Positions 10,964-36,998 of a DNA stretch of 64,000 nt are shown in pieces; within the stretch, counting starts at the first letter, position 1, and every line of letters starts with the position of its first letter. The position numbers and the translations under genes are program-made. The notes under the pieces were generated by a model that did no database searches, had not been told where the DNA came from, and saw only the letters and a program-made list of their open reading frames with translations. Where the stretch lies: NCBI GenBank assembly GCA_018823905.1, contig JAHJHL010000044.1:40150-104149 (forward strand), read 5' to 3'. The DNA comes from Alphaproteobacteria bacterium (GTDB lineage: Bacteria > Pseudomonadota > Alphaproteobacteria > Sphingomonadales > Sphingomonadaceae).

Positions 10964-11809
10964 CTAGGGGCGCGCGGCAATCCGCGCGCGCAGCGTCGCA
11001 AGGTCTTCGATCGGCATTGCCCGGAACTTCGCGTCCAGTTCGTCGACGGGAACCTCCGCGATGTTGAGACGAAACGGATCAGAATCGATCGACTGGAAGC
11101 CCGCTTGTGCAAACATCTCCAGAAACTGGCTGTGCCGCAGGCGGTTCATATAGAGGAAGCGGCTGTTGTGCGTTTCCCAGTCGCTGTCGCTGTAGCGCAG
11201 GAAGTTGATCCGCGAAGCACCTCCGCCGCGGGCGTAGTGGTCGCTATAGTCGATGATGTGAACGGTGATGCCGTCAGTTTTCAGTCGCTTCCGGGCTGCT
11301 GCGAGCACCTCTGCGAGCGATGCGGGCGGGATATGCTCCAGCGTATCGACCGAATAGAAACAGTCGAAATATTCCCCGCCGATATCGGTGATTCGCATCG
11401 GCGCGCGATAGTCGACACCGAAGGCGGCAAGATCGTCGAAGCTCGCGAAGGAGGGCACAGGAACGCCGAGTTGACTTGCGATGTAGCTGGCCGAATGGTT
11501 GATGAGATCGATCCGCGCCAGCCGCTCGATGTCGAGCGTCGTCACCGATCCGACGCCCATCATCCGGAGCGTCAGCGCTACCGCGACATCGCGGCCGGCA
11601 CCGATTTCGAGGAAACGCGCCTCACCGAGGCGCCCTTCAATGGCGGCCGCCGACAATATGTCGCGCGCGGCGACGATCAACTCGTCCAACACCGCTTCGG
11701 TACGCGGCCATTCATGCGTCACGTGGCGCTGCAGGAAATGATGCATCGCGCCGCCGAACGGAACTGACGACAGGATGCGAAACGCCGCGCTTTTGGTTTT
11801 CCAGTGCAT
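10964..11809 (-). CDS. Class I SAM-dependent methyltransferase
   Basis: FLEIGAG motif I, DCFYSVDTLEHIP, LKTDGITVHIID. Real start is ATG 11809 (MHWKTK); the ORF track extension overlaps pseI. Confidence 0.85.
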   Translation of the reverse strand: MHWKTKSAAFRILSSVPFGGAMHHFLQRHVTHEWPRTEAVLDELIVAARDILSAAAIEGRLGEARFLEIGAGRDVAVALTLRMMGVGSVTTLDIERLARIDLINHSASYIASQLGVPVPSFASFDDLAAFGVDYRAPMRITDIGGEYFDCFYSVDTLEHIPPASLAEVLAAARKRLKTDGITVHIIDYSDHYARGGGASRINFLRYSDSDWETHNSRFLYMNRLRHSQFLEMFAQAGFQSIDSDPFRLNIAEVPVDELDAKFRAMPIEDLATLRARIAARP

Positions 11810-11838
11810 GACTTCTCTTTTTATCTGCAGCTTCTGTT

Positions 11839-12909
11839 TCAGTCTGCGGCGGTGAACAGGTCCCAGCTTGCCGCCGTACCGCGCGCGGTATCGCGCAGAA
11901 CCCTGCGACCGAGCAACTGGTCGAGATATTTGGGCGGCAGGCCAAGTCCGGGACGGATCGCGCGCAGATTCTGCGATGTCAGCACGTCGCCCGCCTTCAT
12001 GTCCTCGACGATATAGAGCGACCGGCGGAACTGCAGCGAGCGCGTGTCGGCTTCGGTCGGGCCGTAGCGGACGGTACCGAAAGCGACTGCGGCGCGCGCC
12101 GTTTCCTGTACCATCGCAGCCAGTTCGTCGGGTTCGGAAGAGAAGGCGGCATCGACGCCGCCGTCGTCGCGGCTGAGCGTGAAGTGTTTTTCGATAACTA
12201 CCGCGCCGAAGGCCGCGGCAGCGACCGCGACGCCAATGCCCAGCGTGTGGTCCGAAAAGCCGATATGGCAATCGAACATCTCACCCATGTGCGGGATGTT
12301 GGCGAGGTTGCTGTTTTCGGGCGGGGCCGGGTAGCTGCTGGTGCATTTCAGCAGCACCAGATCCTTGCACCCCGCCCCGCGCGCGGCGGCCACGGCTTCG
12401 TCGATCTCGGCGATCGTCGCCATGCCGGTCGAAATGATCACCGGCTTGCCGGTCGCCGACACCCTGCGGATCAGCGGCAAGTCAACATTTTCGAATGATG
12501 CGATCTTGTAGCAGGGGACACCGAGTTCTTCGAGGAAGTCGACCGCGGTGGCGTCGAACGGGCTGCTGAAGCCGAGCACTCCGCGCTCGCTGCAGCGGTC
12601 GAAGATCGGCTTGTGCCATTCCCAAGGCGTCATCGCCTTCTGATAGAGCGCGTAGAGCGATTCGCCTTCCCACAGGCTGTTGGGGTCCGAAATGAAGAAT
12701 TCGCCCTCCGACAGATCGATCGTCATCGTGTCGGCGGTGTATGTCTGCAGCTTCACCGCGTGCGCCCCTGCCGCTGCAGCCAGATCGACGAGTTCGAGTG
12801 CGCGATCGAGCGAGCCGTTATGATTGCCCGACAACTCGGCGATGATCAGCGGCGGAAGACCCGGCCCAAGCTGATGAGATCCGATTTTTAGCGGTTTTTT
12901 TTCAATCAT
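11839..12909 (-). CDS. pseI: Pseudaminic acid synthase
   Basis: IIAELSGNHNGSLDRA...AVKLQTYTADTMT, YKIASFE, GFSDHTLG, IEKHFTL and a C-terminal SAF/AFP domain (RRSLYIV...IRPGLGLPP). Confidence 0.93.
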   Translation of the reverse strand: MIEKKPLKIGSHQLGPGLPPLIIAELSGNHNGSLDRALELVDLAAAAGAHAVKLQTYTADTMTIDLSEGEFFISDPNSLWEGESLYALYQKAMTPWEWHKPIFDRCSERGVLGFSSPFDATAVDFLEELGVPCYKIASFENVDLPLIRRVSATGKPVIISTGMATIAEIDEAVAAARGAGCKDLVLLKCTSSYPAPPENSNLANIPHMGEMFDCHIGFSDHTLGIGVAVAAAAFGAVVIEKHFTLSRDDGGVDAAFSSEPDELAAMVQETARAAVAFGTVRYGPTEADTRSLQFRRSLYIVEDMKAGDVLTSQNLRAIRPGLGLPPKYLDQLLGRRVLRDTARGTAASWDLFTAAD

Positions 12910-14386
12910 TTACAGTCCGTTCAAAGCTAAGGAGCCTAGGGCTATAGTCGGCACCCCGAAAGAGCGCAATCGAGGTACCGTTTTCCGGCCGGACGTCAGC
13001 GTGAAAGCGCTGAACGCCAGGGTGACGGGCGACCACCCATCTTTCGCCCGCTTGCAGCAACGCACGGCCCATGCCGTGACCTGCGTGACCGGGAGCGAGG
13101 AAGATGGAGACCGTGGCTGTTTCGCCGGCAAGGTCGAAGCGGACGAAGCCGATTTCGCGACCCTGCGCTACGCCGATCAGCATCAGCGTTTGCGGGTCGG
13201 CGATCCGGCGTGCGAACCATGAGCTATGGTCGTCCCACGGAATTTCGGCGGGATCGACCGCGGTTGCCCTTATTTCCGGAGCGTTGCGCCATTCCCAGAC
13301 CTTGCGAGCCTCGTCGGCATCGACGGGCCGGACGGCAACCTCGGGCGGAGCGATCGCGGCGGCAACGCGCGCGACGCCGCGACCGTCGACAGCCGCGGCA
13401 CCGGCGCCGGACATCAGGCTCAGCAGTGCCGGGCGCGATGAAAGCCATGTAACAAGTTGCTGCAATTCGATCCCGAAATCCGGACCGACGGGGAGCGCCA
13501 CGGCGCAACCATAGTCTTCGAGCGCCCGCGCGGTTTCCCGCTGGTTCTCGGCGATAACCCCGACGATGGAAGGAAGGCCAAGGCAGGCGCGCTCCCAGCT
13601 CGTCGATCCGCCAGCACCGATCGCAAGGTCGGCCGCGGCCATCAACTCCGACATATTGGTCGCGTCGATGTGAAGCGAGAGCTTCGCATCTTCGCCCGCT
13701 TGCCGTTGCAGCCGGTCGCGGTGCGGGGACAGGCTGGTGAGCACGGCGTCGATCGCGACATCGGGCAACGCCGCGCGAATCGCCGCGACGGCATCGCCTG
13801 TCAGGTTATCCGTATCGATACCGCCGAAGCTGACCAGAATCCGGGCGACAGTGCGCGATCGCGCGAGGCCTTCGCTGCGCCGGCGCGCGAATTCGGGACG
13901 CAGGAGCGCATAGCGCGGGCCGAGCAATTTACGACAGTCCGCAGGCACAAGCGCGTCATAGCGCGCCGCATCGCCGGGGGCGACATCAAGCAGCAGGTCG
14001 CAGTCATGTCGGCGGTCGGCGAGGTCGTCGATCACCGCGATGCGTGACGCGATCGCGCGCACCCTCTGTTCCCACGCCGGATCGATCCGGTAATGGTCGA
14101 CGACGAGCGCGGTAAAGGGGCCATGACCGGCAAGTGCCGCGATCATCTCTTCGGCATCACGTGCCGCGTCGAACGGGCCGGGCAGTTCGATCAGGCCGAA
14201 GCCTGCATCGCGGACCAGTCCGTTGAAGCTCTGCGCCGACGCGCGGCACACGAACAGGCACTCATACCCCCACTCGCGCAGTCGATCCGCAAGCGCGAGG
14301 CAGCGCCGCAGATGGCCCGAACCGATCGCAGCGTCGGCATCGGCCCGAAACAGGATGCTCGCGTTGGCGCGAGACCCGTCGGTCAT
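12902..14386 (-). CDS. pseG: Fused UDP-diacetamido-trideoxy-altropyranose hydrolase (PseG) and GNAT N-acetyltransferase (PseH-like)
   Basis: N-terminal FRADADAAIGSGHLRRCLALA, VVDHY, IDDLADR, SFGG.D and AGGSTSWERACLGLP (PseG). C-terminal VWEWRNAPEIR...IGFVRFD...GHGMG GNAT domain. Confidence 0.9.
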   Translation of the reverse strand: MTDGSRANASILFRADADAAIGSGHLRRCLALADRLREWGYECLFVCRASAQSFNGLVRDAGFGLIELPGPFDAARDAEEMIAALAGHGPFTALVVDHYRIDPAWEQRVRAIASRIAVIDDLADRRHDCDLLLDVAPGDAARYDALVPADCRKLLGPRYALLRPEFARRRSEGLARSRTVARILVSFGGIDTDNLTGDAVAAIRAALPDVAIDAVLTSLSPHRDRLQRQAGEDAKLSLHIDATNMSELMAAADLAIGAGGSTSWERACLGLPSIVGVIAENQRETARALEDYGCAVALPVGPDFGIELQQLVTWLSSRPALLSLMSGAGAAAVDGRGVARVAAAIAPPEVAVRPVDADEARKVWEWRNAPEIRATAVDPAEIPWDDHSSWFARRIADPQTLMLIGVAQGREIGFVRFDLAGETATVSIFLAPGHAGHGMGRALLQAGERWVVARHPGVQRFHADVRPENGTSIALFRGADYSPRLLSFERTVND

Positions 14387-15006
14387 CAGCCCTTCTTCAT
14401 CAGGAACCAGGTGACGTCGTCCTGCGGGAAATTGGGGTCGCGACGATAGCAGAAGCCGTAATCGACCAGTTCGAGATCGGGGAAGCGATCCATGATCTCG
14501 CCCGCGAAGTCGCGCTTGAACAGGCGATCATCGTGGCCGCGATAGGGTAGGGCAACCGGCGAGGGGTTATAATATTCGACGACGCAAACATATTTGCTGC
14601 TGCTGTTGTAAAGCTGATCGTAGACGCGCGGCAACTCGTCGGGGTTGATGTGGATCAGCACGCCCTTGATCAGCGACAGATCCCATTGGCGGTCGGCCGC
14701 GAAGTCGAAGATCGACTGTTCGCGGACCGTGCAGCGGCCCCATTGGCGCAATTCTTCGGCTGCGTGGCTGTTGATTTCTACCGCAGTCAGGTCGGCACCG
14801 GCGATCAGCGTGTCGATCGCGCGCAGGTTGAGGCCGATGTTGGCGCCGAACTCGACGACCGACTTGACGCCGCGGGTGCGGTTGAGAACTTTCGAGAAGA
14901 GCGCGGTGTTGGCGGCGATCCAGCCCGCGCCGATGTTGCGGTCCGAATATTCGTCGCCGAATTCACCGGCCCAGAAGGCTTCCTGCTCGGTAGCGAAACT
15001 GGTCAT
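14386..15006 (-). CDS. Pseudaminic acid biosynthesis-associated methylase
   Basis: TEQEAFWAGEFGDEY..RN, EFGANIGLNL, KGVLIHINPD, EYYNPSPV..YRGH..RLFKRDFAGE, the recognisable family pattern. TGATG overlap with pseG. Confidence 0.88.
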   Translation of the reverse strand: MTSFATEQEAFWAGEFGDEYSDRNIGAGWIAANTALFSKVLNRTRGVKSVVEFGANIGLNLRAIDTLIAGADLTAVEINSHAAEELRQWGRCTVREQSIFDFAADRQWDLSLIKGVLIHINPDELPRVYDQLYNSSSKYVCVVEYYNPSPVALPYRGHDDRLFKRDFAGEIMDRFPDLELVDYGFCYRRDPNFPQDDVTWFLMKKG

Positions 15007-15017
15007 CGTGGGTCTCC

Positions 15018-15740
15018 TTATATCTTCTGCTGTTCGACATGGGCGTTGATCGAACGCCAGTCGAGATGGGTTTCAAAGAGGGCGATCACGTCTGCGAGCG
15101 CGAGGGTATCGGGATCGGACGCTGCGGCGAAAATGCGGTCCAGAAGCTCGAAATCCTCGGGCGTATCGAGCGTCAGGCGGTAGTCCGAGAAATCCTCGGG
15201 GCCTTCGTGGCTGACGATACGGAACCGGTCGGGATTAGTATAGAGGAAGGGGGTGACATGCTCGCGTTCCGCCGGCGTCGCCGCTTCGGTAAGCATGATG
15301 TCGAGCGCGCTGCGCGAGAAAAGCTCGGCATCGAGCCCGCGCGGAAAGGTCCGGCGCAAGCAGTTGCTGACAAGGTCGGCGTCGCCGCCACGAAAGCGGT
15401 CCGTCATTGCGCCGAGCACGTCGGGATCGATCAACGGGCAATCGGCGGTGATCCGCATGATCGCATCGGCCGCGCTCGCCTCCGCCGCGAGACCGTAACG
15501 CGAGAGAACGTCATTCTCGTCGCCGCGAACGACCGTGGCCCCGAAATCCGCAGCAGCCTCGGCCGCCGGATCGTCGATGTCGCGGACGGTGGTCGCCACC
15601 ACGACTTCGTCGAAGGCGCGCGACGCGCGGACGCGTTCAATAACGCGCTGCAGAACGGGCTTGCCGGCGAGCGGCTTGAGGATCTTGCCCGGAAGCCGGG
15701 TCGATCCTATGCGCGCCTGGATGATCGCAACAACGCGCAC
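15018..15740 (-). CDS. SpsF-type acylneuraminate cytidylyltransferase (functional PseF equivalent)
   Basis: AIIQARIGSTRLPGKIL, RGDENDVLSRY, RITADCPLIDP, REHVTPF and RLTLDTPEDF motifs. Confidence 0.87.
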   Translation of the reverse strand: MRVVAIIQARIGSTRLPGKILKPLAGKPVLQRVIERVRASRAFDEVVVATTVRDIDDPAAEAAADFGATVVRGDENDVLSRYGLAAEASAADAIMRITADCPLIDPDVLGAMTDRFRGGDADLVSNCLRRTFPRGLDAELFSRSALDIMLTEAATPAEREHVTPFLYTNPDRFRIVSHEGPEDFSDYRLTLDTPEDFELLDRIFAAASDPDTLALADVIALFETHLDWRSINAHVEQQKI

Positions 15741-15743
15741 CGG

Positions 15744-16511
15744 TCAGCCGTGGAAATGGCTGCGCACGGGAATGCCCGCCGCGGCCAGATGCGCCTTCGC
15801 CTCGAGCGGCGTGGCTTGGGTGAACAGGTAGATGCTGGCCGCCGATACGGCGGAGGCGCCGGCCCTGACGGCCTCTTCCATATGGAGATAATTGCCCGCG
15901 CCGCCGCTCGCGATGACGGGTATCGATACAGCCGCTGCTATATCGGTGATCGTCCGGAGGTCATAACCTTCCATCAGGCTGTCGCGCTCGATCGAAGTCG
16001 CCTGTATCTCGCCCGCGCCGAGTCGTTCAAGTTCTTTCGCCCATTCGACCGGGTCGCGGCCGGTACCTTCGGTGCCGCAGCGGGTATAGCATTCGCGTCG
16101 ACCGTCGGCGTGGGTTCGATAGTCGATCGCCGCAACGATGCACTGCGCGCCATAGGCGTCCGAGGCCGCGGTGACGAGGCCGGGGTCGCTGTATGCGGCG
16201 CTGTTGATCGACATCTTGTCGGCGCCGGCGAGCAAGAGCTGGCGGATCTGGTCGAGCTTGGTGATGCCGCCGCCGACGGTCAACGGAACGAAGCATTCCT
16301 GCGCCAGCGTTGCGACCATGTCGATGTCGGGGCCACGTCCCGCGGGGGTCGCTGCGATGTCGAGCAGCACCATCTCGTCGACGTCGCGCCGGTTGAACAC
16401 CTTCACCGATTGCATCGGCGCGCCGACCGCGCGCCAGCTGTCGAAGGCGGGCCCCTTCACCAGATTGACCTCTCGCATCAGCAGGGTCGGAATGACGCGC
16501 GTCTTCAGCAT
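15744..16511 (-). CDS. HisF-like cyclase paralog of sugar-amidination system (WbuZ/HisF2 type)
   Basis: RVIPTLL, DEMVLLDI, VPLTVGGGI, GADKMSINS and PVIASGGAG. Located inside the Pse operon. Confidence 0.88.
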   Translation of the reverse strand: MLKTRVIPTLLMREVNLVKGPAFDSWRAVGAPMQSVKVFNRRDVDEMVLLDIAATPAGRGPDIDMVATLAQECFVPLTVGGGITKLDQIRQLLLAGADKMSINSAAYSDPGLVTAASDAYGAQCIVAAIDYRTHADGRRECYTRCGTEGTGRDPVEWAKELERLGAGEIQATSIERDSLMEGYDLRTITDIAAAVSIPVIASGGAGNYLHMEEAVRAGASAVSAASIYLFTQATPLEAKAHLAAAGIPVRSHFHG

Positions 16512-16520
16512 GGTGGAACT

Positions 16521-17132
16521 TTACAGTGCGAGGAAGTTCTTGAGCAGCCGGAATCCGGCGCGTGAGCTTTTTTCGGGATGGAACTGAACCCCGGCGACGC
16601 GACCTGCGCCGACCGCCGAGACGGTCTTGCCCGCATAAGGCGTTGTCGCGAGGATCGCATCTTCGCTGGCGGGGACGAAGCGGAAGCTGTGCACGAAATA
16701 GAAGTCGGCGCCCGATGGAATGCCGTCGAAGAGCGCACCGCCGCGATGGCACACTTCGTTCCAGCCAACGTGCGGTACACGCTCGGCGGCATCGGCCGGC
16801 ACGATCCGCTCGATGCGGCCCGGAATTAGGCCCAGTCCCTGTGTCTTCGAGACCTCGTCGCTTTCGTCGGTGAGAAGCTGCATGCCGAGGCATATTCCAA
16901 GCAACGGCAAGCCGTCATCGTGCACCGCCGCGCGCAGGGCATCGACCCAACTTGCCTCGCGCAGTCGCGCCATTGCCTGCGGAAAGGCCCCCACTCCCGG
17001 TACGACGATCCGGTCGGCCACCTTAATGGCTGCGGGATCGTCGCTGACGAGGGCGCGTCCGCCGCATTCCTCGATCGCGCGGCGGGCGGAAGCAATATTG
17101 CCCATTCCGTAATCGACAATGAGGACGGTCAT
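16521..17132 (-). CDS. HisH-like glutamine amidotransferase subunit (WbuY/HisH2 type)
   Basis: IVDYGMGN, PGVGAF, LGICLGMQLL, VPHVGWN, FYFVHS and VQFHPEKS (Cys-His-Glu triad). Confidence 0.9.
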   Translation of the reverse strand: MTVLIVDYGMGNIASARRAIEECGGRALVSDDPAAIKVADRIVVPGVGAFPQAMARLREASWVDALRAAVHDDGLPLLGICLGMQLLTDESDEVSKTQGLGLIPGRIERIVPADAAERVPHVGWNEVCHRGGALFDGIPSGADFYFVHSFRFVPASEDAILATTPYAGKTVSAVGAGRVAGVQFHPEKSSRAGFRLLKNFLAL

Positions 17133-17145
17133 GTCTCGGCGATCC

Positions 17146-18300
17146 TCAGAGGTTGTCGTCGTTGAGCTTGGCGAGGTTGCCGTGACGATCCTTGATCAAA
17201 TTGCCGCGCCCGTCGGCCTTGAAGATCGACTTGTTGGTGAAGCGGTCGCATATCTCGATGAATTCGTCGATGCTCATGCCGAGCGGCTCGAGGATCTGCT
17301 CGATCGACACACCGAGGTATGTCCAAGGGAATTTGCCGTCGTGAAGTTTGACCATCTGGATGGCATCCTGACGCGTGATGCGGCCGCGACGAACATGCAG
17401 ACAGGCGATGTCGGTCGATCGACCGAAGCCGAACTTCAGGAACTTGAAATAGTCGTGGATACCGGTCTGGAGATTGTCGAGATTTTCGTAGTTTACGATT
17501 GATCCCTCGACGGTCGCCGAGACGCTGGTGAAGCCAAAAGCCTGTGAAATCAGTGCGTTGGTATAGCCGTCCCACGGCAGATAGTGGCCGAGGAAGATGC
17601 CGGTCACGCCTACTCGCGCCAGTTCCTCGTCGGTGGGATAGCTGTAGGGGATCAGGTGGCGCTGTTCGATGCCGTCGATGCCGACGAGGTCGCTAACGCG
17701 CATGCCGAGCAAACCGCCGAATTCCTCGAGCCAGCGGCGCGTGAGCACATTGTTGTCGGCGGCGGAGGCAGGGCCGCCATATTCATTCTGCGAATTCTCG
17801 CCCCAGACAATCAGCGGGACATTGTACTGGACAGCCGCGCGCACCGGAATGGTAAAGATGCCGACATGTTCGGGCCAGCTGATGTCGCCCACATCGGTCA
17901 GTCCGATGCGGTTGAGCTTGCGGCGCACAACCGGATTAGGGCTGAATTCGACATAGTCGACGCCCAGATCCTTGATATTCTGGATATTCTTGCGTCCGAT
18001 CTCGGACAGGTGGCAGGTCGTCGCGGTGATGCACAGCGGGTTCATGCCGAGCTGCAGCATCCGGATGACTTGATAGGTGCTGTCCTTGCCGCCGCTGACC
18101 GGAACGATGCAGTCCCACTGGCTGCCGTCTTTGCTGCGGTAGCGGTCTGTGACTTCCTTCAGTTCCGCCGCACGCATGTCCCAGTCGACTTCGGTGCGCT
18201 TCTCGTACGACCGGCAGGCGTTGCACACGCCTTCGTCGTCGATTCGCAGGTCCGGCTTGGTGTGCGGCATTACGCAGCGGACGCAGTAACGAAGCTCCAC
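17146..18300 (-). CDS. pseA: N-acetyl sugar amidotransferase (PseA/WbuX family)
   Basis: YCVRCVMP.TKP....DDEGVCNAC, PP-loop VSGGKDS, WGENSQNEYGG and HDYFKFLKFGFGR. Confidence 0.88.
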   Translation of the reverse strand: MELRYCVRCVMPHTKPDLRIDDEGVCNACRSYEKRTEVDWDMRAAELKEVTDRYRSKDGSQWDCIVPVSGGKDSTYQVIRMLQLGMNPLCITATTCHLSEIGRKNIQNIKDLGVDYVEFSPNPVVRRKLNRIGLTDVGDISWPEHVGIFTIPVRAAVQYNVPLIVWGENSQNEYGGPASAADNNVLTRRWLEEFGGLLGMRVSDLVGIDGIEQRHLIPYSYPTDEELARVGVTGIFLGHYLPWDGYTNALISQAFGFTSVSATVEGSIVNYENLDNLQTGIHDYFKFLKFGFGRSTDIACLHVRRGRITRQDAIQMVKLHDGKFPWTYLGVSIEQILEPLGMSIDEFIEICDRFTNKSIFKADGRGNLIKDRHGNLAKLNDDNL

Positions 18301-18315
18301 AAAATTTCTCCTAAA

Positions 18316-19476
18316 TCAGCTCAGGGCGCGGGTCAGGGATGCAATCACCCGATCCTGCTGCTCTTCGGTCATGGTGGGAAAGAGGGGGATGGAAATCGCC
18401 CGGCCGTAGTAACGCTCGCTGTCGGGGAAATCCCCGGCGGCGAAGCCCAGCCTGCGATAGTCGGGCTGAAGATGGATCGGGATGTAGTGAACATTCGGCG
18501 AAATGCCGTCGTCCCGCAGCCGATCGAAAACCTCGCGGCGCGTCTTCGGCGTCCGTGCGTCGTCGATCTCGATTACATAGAGATGATGTGCCGAGGTGCG
18601 GTCGTTCGACCGCGGCGGCAGGCGCAGGGCAAGGCTGGCAAGCGCGTCGTCGTATCGCCTTGCGAGCAGATCGCGCCGCGCCTCGCTTTCGGCAAGCCGA
18701 GTGAGCTGGGACGAACCGAGTGCGGCTTGGATATCGGTAAGCCGGTAGTTGAAGCCGAGCCCGACCTGCTCGTAATACCAGGGGCCATCGGGTTCGCTGT
18801 CCATTTCTGTGGGATCGCGCGTGATCCCGTGGCTGCGTGCCTTGCGCATCGCGGCCGCGAGGTCTGCATCATCGGTCAGGCACAGACCGCCTTCGCCGGT
18901 GGTGATGATCTTGACCGGATGGAAGCTGAATACCGAGATGTCGGCGTAGCGGCCGACGGGCTCGCCGTGATAGCTCGCGCCTACCGCATGCGAGCTGTCC
19001 GAGATGATCCGGAAGCCATAGCGATCTGCGAGTTCGCGGATTTCCTTCATGTCGCAGGGGTAGCCCCCGAAATCGACGGGAATGACAATGCCGGGCAGGC
19101 TGCCGTCTTCCGCGGCGAGGGCGAGTTTGTCTGCCAGCTTTTCGACTGAGATGTTGCGCGTTGCGGGATCGATGTCGACGAAATCGACGGTCGCGCCGCA
19201 ATAGCGCGCACAGTTCGCCGATGCGACGAAGCTGTTCGGAGTCGTCCACACGCGTATGCCCGGACCGGCGCCGAGCGCAAGACACGCGATGTGAAGCGCT
19301 CCGGTGGCGTTGGCGACCGCGACGCCGTGCCGCATCCCGTGCAGCGCTGCAAACTCTTCCTCGAATTTCGGAACCGCTGGCCCCTGCGTCAGGAAAGGTG
19401 CACGCAGGACTTCGGCGACGGCGGCGATGTCGGCTTCGCTGATATCCTGGCAGCTATAGGGGATGGGCTTTGACAT
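18316..19476 (-). CDS. pseC: UDP-4-amino-4,6-dideoxy-N-acetyl-beta-L-altrosamine transaminase
   Basis: IPYSCQDISEADI...FLTQGP, NATGALH, FSFHPVKIITTGEGG (PLP lysine), LGFNYRLTD and VHYIPIH. Confidence 0.93.
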   Translation of the reverse strand: MSKPIPYSCQDISEADIAAVAEVLRAPFLTQGPAVPKFEEEFAALHGMRHGVAVANATGALHIACLALGAGPGIRVWTTPNSFVASANCARYCGATVDFVDIDPATRNISVEKLADKLALAAEDGSLPGIVIPVDFGGYPCDMKEIRELADRYGFRIISDSSHAVGASYHGEPVGRYADISVFSFHPVKIITTGEGGLCLTDDADLAAAMRKARSHGITRDPTEMDSEPDGPWYYEQVGLGFNYRLTDIQAALGSSQLTRLAESEARRDLLARRYDDALASLALRLPPRSNDRTSAHHLYVIEIDDARTPKTRREVFDRLRDDGISPNVHYIPIHLQPDYRRLGFAAGDFPDSERYYGRAISIPLFPTMTEEQQDRVIASLTRALS

Positions 19477-19482
19477 CGGGGA

Positions 19483-20496
19483 TCAGAAAGCCGGGTCGAT
19501 ATGTTCGCGGATCAGCATCCGGATTTCCTCGACGGTGAGGAAATGCTCGTTCGTACCGCTTTCGTAACAGAAACCCGGCGCAACGCGGGTCGCGCCATGA
19601 TCACGGCAATAGCGATCGACGACATCTGCGTCGCCCGGAGGCAGGATCGCATAATATTCGCCCATATCGATCGTGTTCGGGCTGTCACTCGCGGTGATCA
19701 TTTCCTCGTGAATCTTCTCGCCCGGACGAATGCCGATAATCTGCTGTTTGGCGGACGGCGCAATCGCCATCGCGACATCGGTGACGCGATAGGAGGGGAT
19801 TTTCGGAACGAGAATCTCGCCGCCCTCCGCATTGTTCAGCGCCCACATCACGAGATCGACACCGCTGTCGAGCGAAATGTTGAAACGCGTCATCGCCGGG
19901 TCGGTGATCGGCAGGGCGCCGTCGTTCCGACGGCCGAGGAAGAAGGGGATAACCGATCCGCGGCTACCCATTACGTTGCCATAGCGGACGACGCTGAAGC
20001 GGACGTCGCGCGCGCCGCGGATGTTGTTCGCCGCGATGAACAGCTTGTCGGAACAGAGCTTCGTTGCACCGTAGAGGTTGACGGGCGCCGCTGCCTTGTC
20101 AGTCGAGAGCGCGACGACGCGCGTCGCCCCGGCATCGAGGCACGCTTCGATGATATTCTGTGCGCCGATTACGTTGGTTTTGATGCATTCGAACGGGTTA
20201 TACTCCGCTGCCGGAACCTGCTTCAGCGCCGCGGCGTGGATGACGGTATCGGTTCCTTCCATCGCGCGGCGGACGCGTTCGGCGTCGCGGACGTCGCCGA
20301 TGAAATAACGCAGAAAGGGGTAGCGTGACTCGGGGAATTCCTGAGCCATTTCAAATTGCTTGAGCTCGTCGCGCGAAAAGATCACCAGACGTCTTGGCGA
20401 TGCATTCGCGACTACATGACGAACGAAAGCCTTGCCGAAAGATCCGGTTCCCCCGGTCAGAAAGATTGAGGCATCGTCAAGCTGAAAGGGGGTCAT
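19483..20496 (-). CDS. pseB: UDP-N-acetylglucosamine 4,6-dehydratase (inverting)
   Basis: LTGGTGSFG, FSRDELKQ, HAAALKQVPAAEYNPFECIKTN, LSTDKA..PVNLYGATKL and VRYGNVMGSRGSVIP. Start ATG 20496 has an AAGGA RBS. Confidence 0.95.
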   Translation of the reverse strand: MTPFQLDDASIFLTGGTGSFGKAFVRHVVANASPRRLVIFSRDELKQFEMAQEFPESRYPFLRYFIGDVRDAERVRRAMEGTDTVIHAAALKQVPAAEYNPFECIKTNVIGAQNIIEACLDAGATRVVALSTDKAAAPVNLYGATKLCSDKLFIAANNIRGARDVRFSVVRYGNVMGSRGSVIPFFLGRRNDGALPITDPAMTRFNISLDSGVDLVMWALNNAEGGEILVPKIPSYRVTDVAMAIAPSAKQQIIGIRPGEKIHEEMITASDSPNTIDMGEYYAILPPGDADVVDRYCRDHGATRVAPGFCYESGTNEHFLTVEEIRMLIREHIDPAF

Positions 20497-20587
20497 AGTA
20501 TTCCTTAAACATCTGAGGTGGCCGCCCATATCTGAGCGAATTTGGCTTGTCGAGACTGCGTCGGTCAATCGTGCGGCAGGCCGCCTC

Positions 20588-21478
20588 TTATCGGTGATAG
20601 CGGATCCTTACGAGCTGACGCAGTTCCGCTTCGAGTCCGGGCGGGCACTCGCCGGCGCGGTTGGCGAACGGGGCTAGGACACTTGACCGGAACAGGCGGC
20701 GGCCAACGGCCGGCACGAGTATGTTGACCGCCGCGACGACGGGCCCCGGTACCGGGACAATACGGACGGTCCGGTCGGCCTCTTCCCCCAGGATCGTGGT
20801 GAGGAGCGAATAGTCGAAGAGCTGCGGGTCGGCGGCGTAGGATATGCCGCCACGACTGTCGGCCGCACACATGATCAGGGCGCGCGCGGCGCCGGCGTAG
20901 GAAAACATCGAACGACGGAAAGGCCGGTCGGCGCGCCCCGGCAGCATGCGCAGCCTGTCAGAGAGTGAGAGAAGCGACGACAGCAGCCCGGGTTTGGTGG
21001 CCGAAAACATGAACGGCAGACGCAGGCATTCGATCCCGAACCCGTCTCCCGCAAGTGCGAGGATTTCGCGGTCGGCGACCGCTTTGGACCGGCCATAGGC
21101 ATTGATTGGCCGTTCGGGCGTGTCGGCGCCGATATGCTCGGCCGTTCCCGTGGTGGCGAAGCTGCTAACCTGCACCATCTTTGCAACACCCGCAATTTTC
21201 GCCGCGCGCGCAATCGCCAGCGGCAACCGGATATTGGCGGCCTCCAGCGTCGCGTCGTCGCCCGTCACGCGGCCGGCGGCGTTGATCACGCCACAACAAC
21301 GCGCGAGGGCTGCGGCGGGCGGTGTTCCGTCGGGTCCAAGCGGCGCATGTTCGAAGCCCGGCAACGGAGACCGTCCGGTCCGTGTGGCAGCGATCGCGGT
21401 TTCCGGCCCGAGTTCGTGCAGCAGTGCGCGACCAAGCCCGCCATTCGCGCCCACGACAAGGATGGAATGACCGCTCAT
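20588..21478 (-). CDS. NAD-dependent epimerase/4-reductase (WbfT/WbpV-like)
   Basis: VVGANGGLG Rossmann motif, QVSS and PINAYGRSK (YxxxK). ATGA-coupled to the upstream sugar transferase. Confidence 0.78.
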   Translation of the reverse strand: MSGHSILVVGANGGLGRALLHELGPETAIAATRTGRSPLPGFEHAPLGPDGTPPAAALARCCGVINAAGRVTGDDATLEAANIRLPLAIARAAKIAGVAKMVQVSSFATTGTAEHIGADTPERPINAYGRSKAVADREILALAGDGFGIECLRLPFMFSATKPGLLSSLLSLSDRLRMLPGRADRPFRRSMFSYAGAARALIMCAADSRGGISYAADPQLFDYSLLTTILGEEADRTVRIVPVPGPVVAAVNILVPAVGRRLFRSSVLAPFANRAGECPPGLEAELRQLVRIRYHR

Positions 21479-22041
21479 CGGCCAGATGCTCCCGCGGCGG
21501 CGTCACCCGATCCCGATCCGGTTGCCGTCGCCCACAAAATACGAAGGTCGCGAGCGAGAGACCATCGACCGCGATAGCCGGAGTCGACTTCGGCCAGCAA
21601 CTCGGGCGTCGACATGTCGATACCGCGGATCTGCGCTACGCCGGTTATGCCGGGAACCAGCGCGAATACGCCATGCCGACGGCGCGCCTCGGTCAGGTCG
21701 AGCTGGTTGGGGAGGCCTGGCCGGGGGCCCACAAACGACATCGTGCCGTTGAGCACGTTCCAGATCTGCGGCAACTCGTCGATCTTCAGTCGGCGAAGCA
21801 GACGCCCGGTCGCGAGGATAGTGCTCGTGCCCACCTGATGCGAAGCAACGCTGGGAGTGGCCACATGCATCGTGCGCAGCTTCAGCAGCCGGAAAGGCCT
21901 CTCCCGGACGCCCAGCCGGGTTTGGAAGAAGATAGGCGACGCGCGCGCTTCCAGCGTGATTGGCAAGGCAACCAGAAAGCAGGCGACGAGAGCGATCGGA
22001 GCGAGCGCAAGGCCGAGCAAGACGTCGAAAATTCGCTTCAT
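21475..22041 (-). CDS. Small monotopic priming phosphoglycosyl transferase (PglC/WbfU-like)
   Basis: MKRIFD, KLRTM, SVASH, IDELPQIWNVLNGTMSFVGPRP and PGITGVAQIRGIDMSTP. Confidence 0.92.
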   Translation of the reverse strand: MKRIFDVLLGLALAPIALVACFLVALPITLEARASPIFFQTRLGVRERPFRLLKLRTMHVATPSVASHQVGTSTILATGRLLRRLKIDELPQIWNVLNGTMSFVGPRPGLPNQLDLTEARRRHGVFALVPGITGVAQIRGIDMSTPELLAEVDSGYRGRWSLARDLRILWATATGSGSGDAAAGASGR

Positions 22042-22303
22042 TTGGTCCGGAATCAGCGAGGAAGGGGGGAGAGAGCCGCAGCCGCATCATAGAAGCTCGT
22101 CCGCCACGGCACAACCGGTTGATTGGCGATGATTCCGCTTCCCGGCCACAGCAAACTTCATCGCGCCCGCCTTCTATCTCGGCCGGCCGCATTTTCTGCA
22201 TCCGGTTATCACGTTTATTGCGCAAGGCGAATTGCCGCGGCGCGTGAAAAAGATACTAGTCGAGTTGGTTTACATAACGATCCGACCGATGGAGCGAGGA
22301 TAA

Positions 22304-23863
22304 ATGCCCCTAATTTCCGACATTGCTTATCGCATTGCCAATGTAACAGGCTACTCCTGCGATATCGAAGTGCATGCCTTTGAGGCGAGGTCGTTGAAGC
22401 CGGTGCCGCTATTCGGGGATGCGGCGTTAACAAAGCCCGTCGCCAATCCCTATTTGGTGTCCGCCGGACATCCCATTCCGACTCTTTGCCATGGTCACAA
22501 CGGACCGGTCCGAATCCGCGTCGTCAACGTCAACAGCCAAAGCGTCTTTTTCGATGACGACCCCTATGACATCCCCGTTTCCGCAAATACGTTGATGGGG
22601 GATCGTGGCGGCGAGCTCGTGGGCAACCAGCGCACCGCTGGCTCTGATCTCCGGATCCAGTCGCTTTCCGAATTTGTCGAGGCGGGCCCGCTGATGCCTT
22701 CGCAGTTTGCGGGCACCGAAGAGGAGCAGCTGGCGCGTGCGATCGTAGAGGGCAGGGCGAGCCGCAATGGCGCTCAGGGGCAGTCCGTCCAGCTTCCGCG
22801 CGGCGAACTCGAGGTATCGAGCAGTATCGCACTTGCGAACCGCGTGACGCTGCGTGGCGTGAACAAGAGGGGTTCGCGTCTCAAGGCGACAAAAACTCAT
22901 CGGGGGCCGTTCATGGTCATCGCCGACAACGGGACGTCGAGCATGTTCGACAACGCGCTTGAGCAACTGACGCTTGACTGCAACGACATAGCAGGGCTGG
23001 GTGGCGTGGTGGCCGACTCCTGGCAGGAGGGCGGCGGCCTGCGGAAGGTTCTGATCGAGAAATTCCGGACCATCGGCGTTCATATTCGTAACGGCTTTGG
23101 CGGTGCCTCGACCTGCCTCGTCGAAGGTGCGGAGATCATGGGATCGGGAGTTGCGCAGGCTACTGCGGGGATAAAGGTCTCGAAAGTCAGTGAGACCGGA
23201 AACTTCATGCTGCACGTGACGAACAGTACGATTACCGGCGACACTGGCAGGCCGATGGCGCGCGGGATCGATATCGCGAACGACAGTCTTTATTGCCATG
23301 TCGTGCATTTCGAGGAGGTGCGCACAGGCATTTATCTGGATGGCGTCGGTCATCATGTTCTGATCGGCGTTACCGGGGCGCAGACGGCGCGCGGTGTTGC
23401 CACGGTCGAGAGCCTCGTCGAGATTGCGCCGACCTTCTCCGGCTCGCTGACGATGCGCGGTTGTTTCCGGGGCGGCGCAACCTATTTGCTGAACGACAAT
23501 CGTCGGGGTGGTTTCGGCGTGATTCCCTATGACACCGACATCACGATCCGTAGCGAACCCGAAGTGGCGCCGGGAGCGATCGTCGCGTCTGCTAGCATAA
23601 ACGGCATCGGGACGCCGGTTGTCACCAAAGGGTTCGGCATTGCGTCGGTGGTTCGCAACGGCAAGGGTGACTACAGCGTGGCCCTGACGCGTTCGGCGCG
23701 AGGCCCGAACGACTTTACGGTGTTCGCCTCGACCAACATGGGGGTGGGCAATGTTCGCTGCGATCTCACAGGCGTCAATTCTGCCCGCCTTCGCTGCTTC
23801 GACGCGGCCGGCAACCCGGCCGATGCGAATGAGGTCAAGATCCTGATGATCCGCGTGGGCTAA
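22304..23863 (+). CDS. Tailspike-like right-handed beta-helix protein (putative polysaccharide depolymerase)
   Basis: GAGG RBS and no signal peptide. Pectate_lyase_3-type helix cap (EEQLARAIV...VQLPRGELEVSSSIAL..RVTLRG), beta-helix periodicity, a phage-like N-terminal segment (PVPLFGDAALTKPVANP) and a C-terminal segment (FGIASVVRNGKGDYSVAL). Family call is by pattern recognition only. Confidence 0.65.
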   Translation: MPLISDIAYRIANVTGYSCDIEVHAFEARSLKPVPLFGDAALTKPVANPYLVSAGHPIPTLCHGHNGPVRIRVVNVNSQSVFFDDDPYDIPVSANTLMGDRGGELVGNQRTAGSDLRIQSLSEFVEAGPLMPSQFAGTEEEQLARAIVEGRASRNGAQGQSVQLPRGELEVSSSIALANRVTLRGVNKRGSRLKATKTHRGPFMVIADNGTSSMFDNALEQLTLDCNDIAGLGGVVADSWQEGGGLRKVLIEKFRTIGVHIRNGFGGASTCLVEGAEIMGSGVAQATAGIKVSKVSETGNFMLHVTNSTITGDTGRPMARGIDIANDSLYCHVVHFEEVRTGIYLDGVGHHVLIGVTGAQTARGVATVESLVEIAPTFSGSLTMRGCFRGGATYLLNDNRRGGFGVIPYDTDITIRSEPEVAPGAIVASASINGIGTPVVTKGFGIASVVRNGKGDYSVALTRSARGPNDFTVFASTNMGVGNVRCDLTGVNSARLRCFDAAGNPADANEVKILMIRVG

Positions 23864-23868
23864 AGCCG

Positions 23869-24259
23869 TCAGGATTGTCTGCCATAGCTGCGATACCATC
23901 GATAACAACGGGGATGCCTAAGCTGAAGGGGGTCTCGAGGACCGGCGAGGCTCGCGCAGTCATCGGCGACCGGAGTCAAGTTGACGGTGCACCCTGACCT
24001 GCGCGGCGAAATGAACGATGTAGTCGAATTCAGCACCCGCAAGTGCGCCAGTGGGATCCGTCTGATCTCCGATATCGCCTCGGTGCACGACCATCCAACC
24101 AGCGCCAAAGCGTTCGAACGCGGCGATCCGAGCTTTGTTCAGCACGACTAAATATTAATTGTGGACATCGTCGATTCCAATCTCGGTCTCGCCTAAAGCG
24201 AGTAAATTAGCGGTGGAATTCGTTCCAACGGGGCCAGTGACCGCGATTAAACGATGCAA
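23869..24259 (-). pseudogene. Degenerate, internally deleted UDP-glucuronate 4-epimerase-like gene relic
   Basis: The minus strand reads IAVTGPVG...LLALGETEIGIDDVHN*YLVVLNKARIAAF...GDIGD...FDYIVHFAAQVRV, then after frameshifts ETPFSLGIPVVID/WYRSY*. These pieces align to the N- and C-termini of the intact paralog at 35994..36998. Confidence 0.8.
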
Positions 24260-24421: not shown

Positions 24422-25885
24422 ATGGATTTCGCGTTCGACAACAGTTTTCACGCGGACATGGAAGGGTTCTTTGCGCCCGGCGAAGCTGTGCAGCCATTGG
24501 AGCCGAAGCTCCTAGCCTTCAACCAAGCCTTGGCCGACCGGCTGGGCCTAACCGTCGCTGACGTCGAAGACGAAAAACTGGCGAGTATTTTCTCGGGACA
24601 CGAACTTCCGGCTGGCGCCGATCCGCTCGCCTTTGCCTATGCAGGGCACCAGTTTGGCCATTTTTCATCCCAACTCGGCGACGGCCGTGCGCTGCTGATC
24701 GGAGAAATGCTTGCCCCCGACGGCGCGCGCTTCGACCTGCAACTGAAGGGGGCTGGGCCAACCGCCTTTTCGCGGAATGGCGATGGCAAGGCTGCGATCG
24801 GTCCGGTCCTTCGCGAATATCTGGTGTCTGAGGCGATGGCCGCCATGGGGGTGCGGACGACGCGATCGCTGGCGGCGGTGGCAACCGGTGATCGCGTGCA
24901 GCGCGAGCGGTCGCATCCTGGCGCCGTGCTGACGCGCGTTGCGAGCAGTCATATTCGGGTTGGGACTTTTCAATTTTTTGCCGCGCATTTTGGCGCCGAT
25001 CACGTCATCCAGCTGTCCGATTACACCGTCCGTCGTCATTTTCCCGAGCTCGTTGAGACTGCCAATCCGCACCTTGCGCTGCTCGATCGCGTCATCGGCC
25101 TGCAATGCGAACTCGTCGCCCGCTGGATGGGGGTGGGTTTCATTCATGGCGTGATGAACACCGATAATGTCGCGGTCAGTGGCGAGACGCTCGACTACGG
25201 CCCTTGCGCCTTTATGGATCGATTTGCGGTGAACACGGTGTTCAGTTCGATCGATGCGAACGGGCGTTATGCTTACGGCCGTCAGCCACAGATCACGCAC
25301 TGGAACATGGCGCGGTATGCCGAGGCTATGTTGCCCGCGATCCATGCCGTAAATCCTGCTGACGTGGACGCGGCCAAGGCGTTGGTTGACGCGATCCCGG
25401 CCCGATTTCGGGCGATATGGCTTGATGAAATGCGCACGAAACTGGGGTTGGGGCGGCCGCACAAGGACGACGAACAGCTTATTGACTCCCTGTTTGGCGA
25501 ACTGGAACAGCATGCCGTCGATTTCACGTCGTTTTTCCGCGCGCTAGCGCAGTTGCTGCGCGGCGAGGGCGACATGCTGGAGTCGCTCCTGCCCGATGCG
25601 GAGGCGATGGCGCCGTGGATCGCCGATTGGTGGTCGCAGCTCGAGCGCGAAGCGATTGCGCCGCTGGAGCGCGCTGACGCGATGGACGCCGTGAATCCGT
25701 TCTATATTCCGCGCAATCATCTCGTCGAGGCTGCGCTGGTTGCGGCGGAGGCAGGGGATATGGCACCGTGGACCAAACTGCTGGAGGTTGTGCAAAATCC
25801 CTTTGTCGAACGCGCCGAGTGGGGTGCTTTCGCACAACCGGCGCCAATCGACGCCGCCCCATATAAAACCTTCTGCGGTACATGA
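24422..25885 (+). CDS. selO: Protein adenylyltransferase SelO (YdiU)
   Basis: AYAGHQFG...LGDGRA, LQLKGAGPT.FSRNGDGKA, GFIHGVMNTDN, DYGPCAF, VNP.YIPRNH and C-terminal TFCGT. Confidence 0.95.
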   Translation: MDFAFDNSFHADMEGFFAPGEAVQPLEPKLLAFNQALADRLGLTVADVEDEKLASIFSGHELPAGADPLAFAYAGHQFGHFSSQLGDGRALLIGEMLAPDGARFDLQLKGAGPTAFSRNGDGKAAIGPVLREYLVSEAMAAMGVRTTRSLAAVATGDRVQRERSHPGAVLTRVASSHIRVGTFQFFAAHFGADHVIQLSDYTVRRHFPELVETANPHLALLDRVIGLQCELVARWMGVGFIHGVMNTDNVAVSGETLDYGPCAFMDRFAVNTVFSSIDANGRYAYGRQPQITHWNMARYAEAMLPAIHAVNPADVDAAKALVDAIPARFRAIWLDEMRTKLGLGRPHKDDEQLIDSLFGELEQHAVDFTSFFRALAQLLRGEGDMLESLLPDAEAMAPWIADWWSQLEREAIAPLERADAMDAVNPFYIPRNHLVEAALVAAEAGDMAPWTKLLEVVQNPFVERAEWGAFAQPAPIDAAPYKTFCGT

Positions 25886-35993: not shown

Positions 35994-36998
35994 TTACTGG
36001 CGCTTCGACCAATCTTCCCGATACCAATCAACGAAAGCTGGAATACCGACCGCCATCGGGGTGGTCGGCGCAAAGCCGAGGTCGCGACTGATATCGTCGA
36101 TATCGGCGAAGGTCTGGTACACGTCGCCGTCCTGCATCGGCAGCAGGTTGATCTGGGCTTTGCGGTCGCAGGCGACTTCGATCGCGCGGATCAGGTCGGT
36201 CAGCTGCTCGGGGCGGTTGTTGCCGATGTTGTACAATCGGTGCGGCGTGGTGAAGCCGCCCGGTTTCTCTCGGCTGTCATCTTCTGGCGGATGATTGAGC
36301 GCCAGCACCACACCGTTGACGATATCGTCGATAAAGGTGAAGTCGCGCAGCATGTCGCCGTGATTGTAAACGTCGATCGGAAGGCCTTGCAGCACCGCTT
36401 CGGTGAATTTCCAGACCGCCATGTCGGGGCGCCCCCACGGCCCATAGACGGTGAAGAAGCGCAGCCCGGTCTGCGGGATCCGGAAAAGATGGGCATAGGT
36501 TTCGCTCATCAACTCATCGGCACGCTTCGTCGCCGCGTAGAGAGAGATGGGCGTATCAGCCCTGTCGGCGACCCGAAACGGCGTATCAGTTCTCATGCCA
36601 TAGATCGACGATGATGACGCATAGACGAGGTGCGAAATCGCGCGGTGGCGTGCGAGTTCGAGAATATTCACATGCCCGGAGATGTTCGAATGGATGTAGG
36701 CTGCCGGATTTTCGAGCGAATAGCGCACCCCTGGCTGCGCCCCCAGATGCACGATCCGATCGATCTTCACGTCCGCTAGCGCCTGAGCGAGTGCATTCGC
36801 GTCACCGAAATCGACATCCTTGAACGTGAACAGGTCGCCATAGCGTGCCGCAAGATGCGCGACGCGGGCGCGTTTGAGATCGAGCGAATAATAGGGGGTG
36901 AAATTGTCAATGCCGATCACATGCTCACCGCGCCCGAGCAGCGCCGCCGCAACATGCATGCCGATGAAGCCTGCCGCACCGGTAATCAGTATCGTCAA
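35994..36998 (-). CDS. UDP-glucuronate 4-epimerase-like SDR
   Basis: GAAGFIGMH, HLGAQPGVRYSLENP, YASSSSIYG, SLYAATK, RFFTVYGPWGRPDMA and RDFTFIDDI. TTG start. Confidence 0.9.
   Translation of the reverse strand: MTILITGAAGFIGMHVAAALLGRGEHVIGIDNFTPYYSLDLKRARVAHLAARYGDLFTFKDVDFGDANALAQALADVKIDRIVHLGAQPGVRYSLENPAAYIHSNISGHVNILELARHRAISHLVYASSSSIYGMRTDTPFRVADRADTPISLYAATKRADELMSETYAHLFRIPQTGLRFFTVYGPWGRPDMAVWKFTEAVLQGLPIDVYNHGDMLRDFTFIDDIVNGVVLALNHPPEDDSREKPGGFTTPHRLYNIGNNRPEQLTDLIRAIEVACDRKAQINLLPMQDGDVYQTFADIDDISRDLGFAPTTPMAVGIPAFVDWYREDWSKRQ

Follow-up and report, generated by a model that had tools for sequence, protein, structure and literature searches.

What does a phage tailspike gene do as a resident of a bacterial polysaccharide locus? 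The question is raised by a 519-residue protein encoded in a 64,000-nucleotide stretch, hereafter the window, of contig JAHJHL010000044.1 (positions 40,150 to 104,149, forward strand; assembly GCA_018823905.1) from a member of the Sphingomonadaceae, where its gene lies divergently beside an operon for a pseudaminic acid (Pse)-type sugar. The original prediction, made from the letters of the window, offered two functions for this gene: a domesticated enzyme that remodels the capsule of its own cell, or a receptor-binding protein of a gene transfer agent (GTA) or tailocin that stays linked to its cognate capsule type. Here, all three domains of the protein are found to be of phage ancestry, the gene occupies a fixed site in a replaceable locus, and its central β-helix has been replaced. 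We hypothesize, and give the idea about an even chance, that the product is a tailspike depolymerase domesticated to act on the Pse-type polymer of the cell itself, comparable to WceF of Pantoea, with a specificity module that is renewed from phages.

A protein built from phage tailspike parts

The gene and its domains, numbered from the first letter of the window, are as follows.

22304..23863, + strand: 519-residue tailspike-like gene, complete open reading frame (ORF) including the stop codon
22304..22588, + strand: N-module, residues 1-95, podovirus tailspike head-binding-type β-sandwich
22589..22723, + strand: linker or neck, residues 96-140, common to the phage copies
22724..23503, + strand: right-handed parallel β-helix, residues 141-400, the part exchanged with phage tailspikes
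23504..23860, + strand: C-terminal β-sandwich, residues 401-519, tail-fiber-like

The AlphaFold monomer model derived from 82 homologs has a pLDDT of 89.8, and its best Foldseek matches in the PDB are the tailspikes of Sf6, HK620, K2-2, phiAB6, CBA120, Fri1 and AM24. The best fold matches among the viral models of BFVD are tailspikes and tail fibers, including one of Sphingomonas phage Scott. With P0015, a 525-residue P22-like tailspike, the protein is collinear along its whole length, at 52% identity over residues 26-518. Searches with the full-length protein against PHROGs, NCBIfam and PDB sequences (the last by phmmer, E ≤ 10) returned nothing significant, and a scan of genome contigs with the single protein as query gave no match. 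Each part was assigned from its own profile or fold. For the N-module, a profile (A2) built on the first 140 residues in nine loci matches the Pan3 tail-spike N-termini (9vyg/9vyh, E = 3e-6) and the "tailspike head-binding domain" of Pam1 (7eeq, E = 0.003) in the PDB, a separate model of the domain (core pLDDT 75-90) matches the Pan3 and Pam1 tail machines and then the Sf6 and P22 tailspike N-termini, and hhalign aligns the module with that of P0015 at a probability of 94%. For the helix, PF12708 (Pect-lyase_RHGA_epim, formerly Pectate_lyase_3) scores 18 bits (E = 0.0026) against a gathering threshold of 27 bits, which is passed by clear homologs (P0060, 44 bits), many of which carry a precomputed PF12708 assignment. 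The C-domain gives weak matches to PHROG tail fibers (E = 0.002-0.007), and the phage homolog P0016 matches the same PHROG tail-fiber family at 3.8e-6. All three parts are phage-tailspike parts, as the original prediction had proposed.

Nineteen residues are invariant across the chromosomal and phage copies in the set of 82 homologs, among them E277, H335 and E337 inside the helix and D410 just past it. The helix is the presumed substrate-binding and catalytic module, and the invariant acidic residues held in common with phage spikes argue for a retained, predicted depolymerase activity.

Approximately 455 representative proteins match the 519-residue protein. In the 82-sequence alignment, residues 1-95 are common to P0001-P0013 only; the other ~70 aligned homologs have the same linker, helix and C-domain joined to unrelated N-termini, including T7-tail-fiber N-domains. 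The phage-group copies whose genomic context was examined are real phage spikes: P0016 lies in the Sphingopyxis prophage or phage L012 with an LPD22 internal protein on one side and lysis genes on the other, P0015 in the P22-like contig L027 with gp4-, gp10- and gp7-like genes, and P0019 in a podophage with an SU10 adaptor. The body of the tailspike (residues 96-519) was found in 9 IMG/VR contigs, and a tblastn search of 50,697 phage records yielded a sole match, the tail spike of Xanthomonas phage PBR31, at 26% over the helix. In the prophage that carries P0016, the LPD22-domain protein just upstream of the spike has 2028 residues (L012:3576-9662); the equivalent position in phage contig L013 is called as a protein of 737 residues.

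The original prediction also described a protein that lacks a signal peptide, and this description holds. An in-frame stop lies immediately 5' of the ORF at 22304-23863 (+) and the orthologs share the same start residue; an N-terminal extension of the ORF is therefore impossible. No hydrophobic or membrane segment is present (the highest Kyte-Doolittle value of any 19-mer is 1.2), nor is there a twin-arginine motif; the protein therefore has no Sec or twin-arginine translocation (Tat) signal.

A locus-type-specific gene in a replaceable cassette

The surroundings of the gene are described by the following features.

22042..22303, no strand: divergent intergenic region of 262 bp between the tailspike gene and the initiating sugar transferase
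21475..22041, − strand: Bac_transf initiating sugar transferase (Pfam), first gene of the divergent operon, 82% identical in syntenic loci
10964..21478, − strand: nonulosonic (pseudaminic-type) acid operon
23972..24241, − strand: fossil fragment of an epimerase gene; L001 and L011 have the gene whole, convergent with the tailspike gene
24422..25885, + strand: SelO, with the right boundary of the replaceable locus within its 5' part

The same gene order, from the Bac_transf/Pse operon through the tailspike gene to SelO, is found in the window and in loci L001, L010, L011 and L042, and Ugd and TamAB follow SelO in the syntenic loci wherever the contig extends that far. A further copy of the tailspike gene is present on a short contig of a Sphingopyxis metagenome-assembled genome (MAG; G280, locus L049). 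Homologs are thus linked to polysaccharide loci, as had been anticipated, in six syntenic loci counting the window and L049. In comparisons of the window with the other syntenic loci, TamA/TamB are 86-88% identical, Ugd 80-89%, SelO 76%, and PseB and Bac_transf 82-85%; the tailspike gene is 54-56% identical, and the nonulosonic acid tailoring genes HisF, HisH and CMP-transferase only 35-41%.

A natural comparison is offered by G285, whose TamB and Ugd are each 97% identical to those of the window and whose flanks show 86-90% nucleotide identity; this very close relative holds a different polysaccharide locus at the same site (Bac_transf 36%) and has no tailspike gene there. The gene is therefore part of the replaceable cassette. 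Nucleotide homology between the window and G285 resumes at 24629, ~200 nt inside the 5' part of SelO, so that a recombination boundary of the polysaccharide cassette cuts the 5' end of selO; SelO itself is 87% identical between the two, versus 97% for the adjacent Ugd. Two more genomes of the same genus, G054 and G152, lack the tailspike gene and have different polysaccharide genes upstream of SelO. The tailspike gene is a locus-type-specific accessory gene inside a replaceable region.

Every domain of this gene is under purifying selection. Among L001, L010 and L011, dN/dS is 0.12-0.15 overall at dS of 0.66-1.35, and by domain it is 0.09-0.18 for the N-module, 0.12-0.15 for the helix and 0.06-0.09 for the C-domain. 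The G+C content at third codon positions of the tailspike gene is 0.72, similar to that of its neighbors and thus host-like.

The 262-bp divergent region that the original prediction placed between the tailspike gene and the Pse operon is found at 22042-22303, with Bac_transf heading the PseB/PseC/NeuB operon. When this region is aligned across loci, the ribosome-binding region is the sole conserved part, and a promoter and terminator scan of it did no better than shuffles. The operon encodes an epimerase, PseB-like and PseC-like proteins, a PseA-like/HisH/HisF triad, a cytidylyltransferase, a GNAT protein and NeuB; farther upstream of it lie Wzy_C, Wza, Wzc and GT2 genes, and downstream of the tailspike gene are SelO, then Ugd and TamA/TamB. 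The fragment at 23972-24241 matches residues 8-97 of the intact L001/L011 epimerase (43% identity, E = 3e-16), of which an intact ortholog (72%) stands elsewhere in the window at 35994-36998 (−); the fragment marks a past rearrangement at the edge of the locus.

In three of the other five syntenic loci (L001:7986-9866, L011:7990-9867 and L042:1128-3008), the gene next upstream of the tailspike gene, in the same orientation, is a 626-residue ORFan. It includes a coiled-coil-like segment, is absent from the genome of the window, and has only 7 close clusters among 5.8 billion proteins. It was considered as a second fiber gene and rejected, with no Pfam, PHROG, PDB, PADLOC or phage match.

The central helix has been exchanged with phage spikes

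In the tree of the body (residues 96-519), the 13 chromosomal copies fall into two non-sister clades, one of them nested among phage-type copies, and the approximately unbiased (AU) test rejects a single chromosomal clade (delta lnL 71.9, p = 0.0115). The rejection is stronger for the helix alone (p = 0.002). The nearest non-chromosomal relatives of the window helix are P0023 and the phage spike P0015 at 65-66% identity, versus 50-51% for the other chromosomal clade. The C-domain tree places all 13 chromosomal copies in one clade (Shimodaira-Hasegawa-like approximate likelihood-ratio support, SH-aLRT, 88), and the N-module is, among body homologs, exclusive to chromosomal copies. From this separate ancestry of the helix and the chromosomal character of both terminal domains it follows that the ends were inherited with the site and that the central, substrate-facing helix was exchanged with phage spikes. 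The original prediction had suggested looking for a β-helix that varies by capsule type behind a conserved N-terminus; the helix is indeed phage-linked and the N-module and C-domain stay chromosomal, in a comparison that comprises two chromosomal clades.

A spike gene apart from any resident particle genes

That no other phage gene accompanies this one had been noted for the 64 kb of the window, and the observation extends to the genome. This genome, a MAG of 3.69 Mb that is 96% complete and fragmented into 216 contigs, contains a single copy of the tailspike gene; GTA_TIM, HK97 capsid, P22 gp4 and terminases of both major families are all absent from it, and none of the other genes from eight related phage contigs was found in it. 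Its 13 tyrosine integrases are all on contigs other than that of the window (C26), which has none. Within the limits of a fragmented MAG, the gene is a true orphan, outside any phage or prophage setting. Among 16 genomes of the genus, including complete ones and all eight N-module carriers, GTA_TIM and P22 gp4 were each found in none; as positive controls, GTA_TIM matched Caulobacter and P22 gp4 matched E. coli. On these profile searches, the genus, which is probably Sphingopyxis, appears to be without GTAs of the Rhodobacter capsulatus type (RcGTA).

A proposed domesticated tailspike depolymerase

We propose that a variable, Wzy/Wza/Wzc-type locus for a pseudaminic-acid-containing capsule or exopolysaccharide (EPS) in Sphingopyxis-like hosts acquired the complete tailspike gene of a P22-like podophage and kept it as a resident. 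The protein would form a trimeric β-helix glycanase that binds and cuts the polysaccharide of its own locus, and this cutting may serve chain-length control, remodeling or release of the capsule or EPS matrix, as with Pantoea WceF. The helix would be renewed through recombination with the spikes of phages that attack this polysaccharide, so that the enzyme continues to fit the polymer as the locus changes. The head-binding domain, kept in the protein, could contribute trimer stability and solubility, as it does in WceF. Candidate routes of export are lysis of a subpopulation, as proposed for the RcGTA spike TspA, vesicles, or a signal-independent exporter.

The closest functional parallel is WceF of Pantoea stewartii, with homologs in Erwinia, a tailspike-like stewartan hydrolase encoded in an EPS cluster, the crystal structure of which has been solved; it has a Tat signal, and its P22-type head domain is needed for stability and not for capsid docking (PMC7949094). 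Both are bacterial non-prophage genes in Wzy/Wzc-type EPS loci, both combine a head domain with a β-helix and C-terminal domains, and the job proposed for both is to cut the cell's own polymer. However, the 519-residue protein has no export signal, its host is a sphingomonad with a Pse-type locus, and its helix has been exchanged with phage spikes, of which copies 52-61% identical exist. No sequence similarity to WceF emerged from the phmmer search of all PDB chains at E ≤ 10, which presumably include that of WceF, and the 50 fold matches listed do not contain it.

A second parallel is TspA (Rcc02623), a detachable RcGTA tailspike and biofilm depolymerase (bioRxiv 10.64898/2026.07.19.739414). 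It is controlled by GafA, co-occurs with and depends on the GTA, and has a 180-residue N-domain resembling a carbohydrate-binding module and a PF12218-like cap; in the survey of that paper it occurs in Rhodobacterales and not in other GTA-encoding Alphaproteobacteria (bioRxiv 10.64898/2026.07.19.739414). Like the gene described here, tspA is a stand-alone alphaproteobacterial chromosomal tailspike gene, and its product, a trimeric β-helix with a C-terminal domain, acts on the producer's own matrix polysaccharide after being freed by lysis and not by secretion. In contrast, tspA does not lie in a polysaccharide locus, whereas the 519-residue gene does and has no GTA. The N-domain of the latter, of ~95 residues and of head-binding type, is set apart from TspA by TspA's description, and a Pfam scan of the window protein gave no match to PF12218.

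With tailspikes of the P22/Sf6 type, the protein shares the three-part architecture and nearly the length (519 versus 525 residues), and P0016 is 61% identical over the body. It differs from them in having no virion genes beside it or genome-wide, in its fixed chromosomal site and long-term purifying selection, and in an N-module subtype seen in chromosomal proteins only. The tailspike of Acinetobacter phage phiAB6 (PDB 5JS4/5JSD), a virion protein, matches in fold at only 11-12% sequence identity. Its substrate is a pseudaminic-acid-containing surface polysaccharide, and from the neighboring Pse genes we infer that a similar polymer may be the substrate here.

Several observations weigh against this model. 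The protein lacks a signal peptide, a Tat motif and any membrane segment, the locus has no evident exporter gene, and the model gives no account of how the protein would meet a polymer in the periplasm or outside the cell. Constraint on the head-binding module equals that on the catalytic part, and the module is found again on at least 15 other chromosomal proteins whose bodies are unrelated, a pattern for which a pure stability role offers no obvious explanation. The gene is also rare, being present in 2 of 136 genomes of the genus and 1 of 201 sampled genomes of the family, and a correspondence of helix type with locus type can be drawn from n = 2 clades only.

Alternative functions for the spike

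One alternative hypothesis is that the protein works against phages, either as a cytoplasmic decoy whose conserved head-binding module fills tailspike docking sites on podophage tails during assembly or as a receptor-destroying enzyme that is freed at lysis of an infected cell and strips the capsule, as receptor, off neighboring kin. The missing export signal would leave the protein where virions assemble, purifying selection acts on the podovirus docking-type N-domain despite the lack of a resident particle, the body finds its closest relatives among the tailspikes of podophages from the same host group, and the gene lies within a locus that makes a probable phage receptor. However, no PADLOC model matched the tailspike protein, a decoy with a matching active helix is not obviously harmful to a phage, the N-module subtype was found in no phage record or viral contig so that no matching phage tail hub is known, and WceF is an example of a head domain kept without any phage involvement. 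We consider an anti-phage role unlikely. The fuller proposal, in which a cytoplasmic tailspike is a weapon or shield (as decoy, as poisoned spike, or through shaving of kin capsules at lysis) and its helix is matched by recombination with the spikes of attackers, is a more doubtful one; if true, the Sphingopyxis N-module family would be an unrecognized class of phage-derived defense genes tied to surface-glycan loci.

The second function offered by the original prediction, a receptor-binding spike for a particle encoded elsewhere (a GTA, tailocin, satellite or helper prophage) and linked to its cognate capsule type, fares poorly, and the best-supported reading is the other one, the domesticated remodeling enzyme. 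A virion-attachment-type N-module that is conserved and fused to interchangeable bodies in several Sphingopyxis genomes would suit such a spike, as would the absence of a signal peptide, which is usual for virion proteins, and in Rhodobacter the GTA spike and fiber genes do lie outside the main cluster. Yet neither GTA_TIM nor P22 gp4 was found in the 16 genomes of the genus, eight N-module carriers included, the 96%-complete MAG (216 contigs) is without capsid, terminase or related-phage genes, the N-domain is of podovirus type, unlike GTA or tailocin adaptors, and TspA differs in architecture and was found by its survey in Rhodobacterales and not in other GTA-encoding Alphaproteobacteria. 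Such a particle spike is therefore improbable. That the gene is a functionless remnant of a P22-like prophage end, left by chance beside a polysaccharide locus, is very improbable, for although other N-module proteins adjoin integrases or serine recombinases as the last visible pieces of integrated elements and a fossil gene lies immediately downstream, 13 protein clusters have intact ORFs, omega stays at 0.12-0.15 with dS of 0.66-1.35, the same site is occupied in five other loci (counting L049) that differ by 11-24% in housekeeping proteins, and the composition is host-like on a contig (C26) that has no integrase.

The N-module in other proteins

The N-module is not confined to this gene. 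In versions 35-47% identical to that of the window, it heads about 15 other protein clusters with unrelated β-helix bodies, and all named carriers are Sphingopyxis or unclassified Sphingomonadales. This subtype was found neither in phage records by tblastn nor in IMG/VR, where the scan was pattern-limited and is thus weak evidence. Some N-module proteins look like leftovers of prophage ends, and others lie at boundaries of glycan genes.

In Sphingopyxis panaciterrae, a small insert between tilS and ftsH (L005:6266-12890) is made up of two large serine recombinases, a 696-residue N-module/β-helix protein and a 189-residue protein of unknown type; it represents a minimal mobile element or else the remains of a prophage. 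Another N-module protein adjoins a P4-type integrase at the edge of an island, and another adjoins lytic transglycosylase genes. A 610-residue N-module protein (P0212, L007:10001-11833) lies beside RHS/Calx-beta genes and type IV secretion system genes, and has a borderline weak match to Phage_BR0599, a family of baseplate-hub type (22.7 bits versus a cut-off of 22.9). G285, the close relative with a different polysaccharide locus, encodes a 653-residue protein with the same N-module on an unrelated, unannotated body (L046:8989-10950, equal to G285:C44, L053 and L037). This protein, which is divergent from a sugar epimerase gene, and a 498-residue protein of unknown type replace the epimerase of the window at ~35.9-37.2 kb, beyond TamAB-GDT1. 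That site makes a second variable spot for glycan genes in which a spike-like gene resides.

Implications for surface glycans and phage host range

Two studied cases were found in which a bacterium uses a tailspike on its own matrix, the Tat-secreted WceF and the GTA-borne TspA of RcGTA. If the domesticated depolymerase that we favor is borne out, the gene described here would be a third, unrelated case, situated in a swappable capsule cassette and having neither an export signal nor a particle. It would also provide a candidate enzyme for a polysaccharide of the pseudaminic acid type. The domain history has the two ends fixed in place and the specificity module passing between a host gene and phage spikes. 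Two questions thereby become testable: how depolymerases encoded by the host keep fitting capsule types that change fast, and whether loci of the host may act as a reservoir of, or an exchange partner for, the modules that set the host range of phages.

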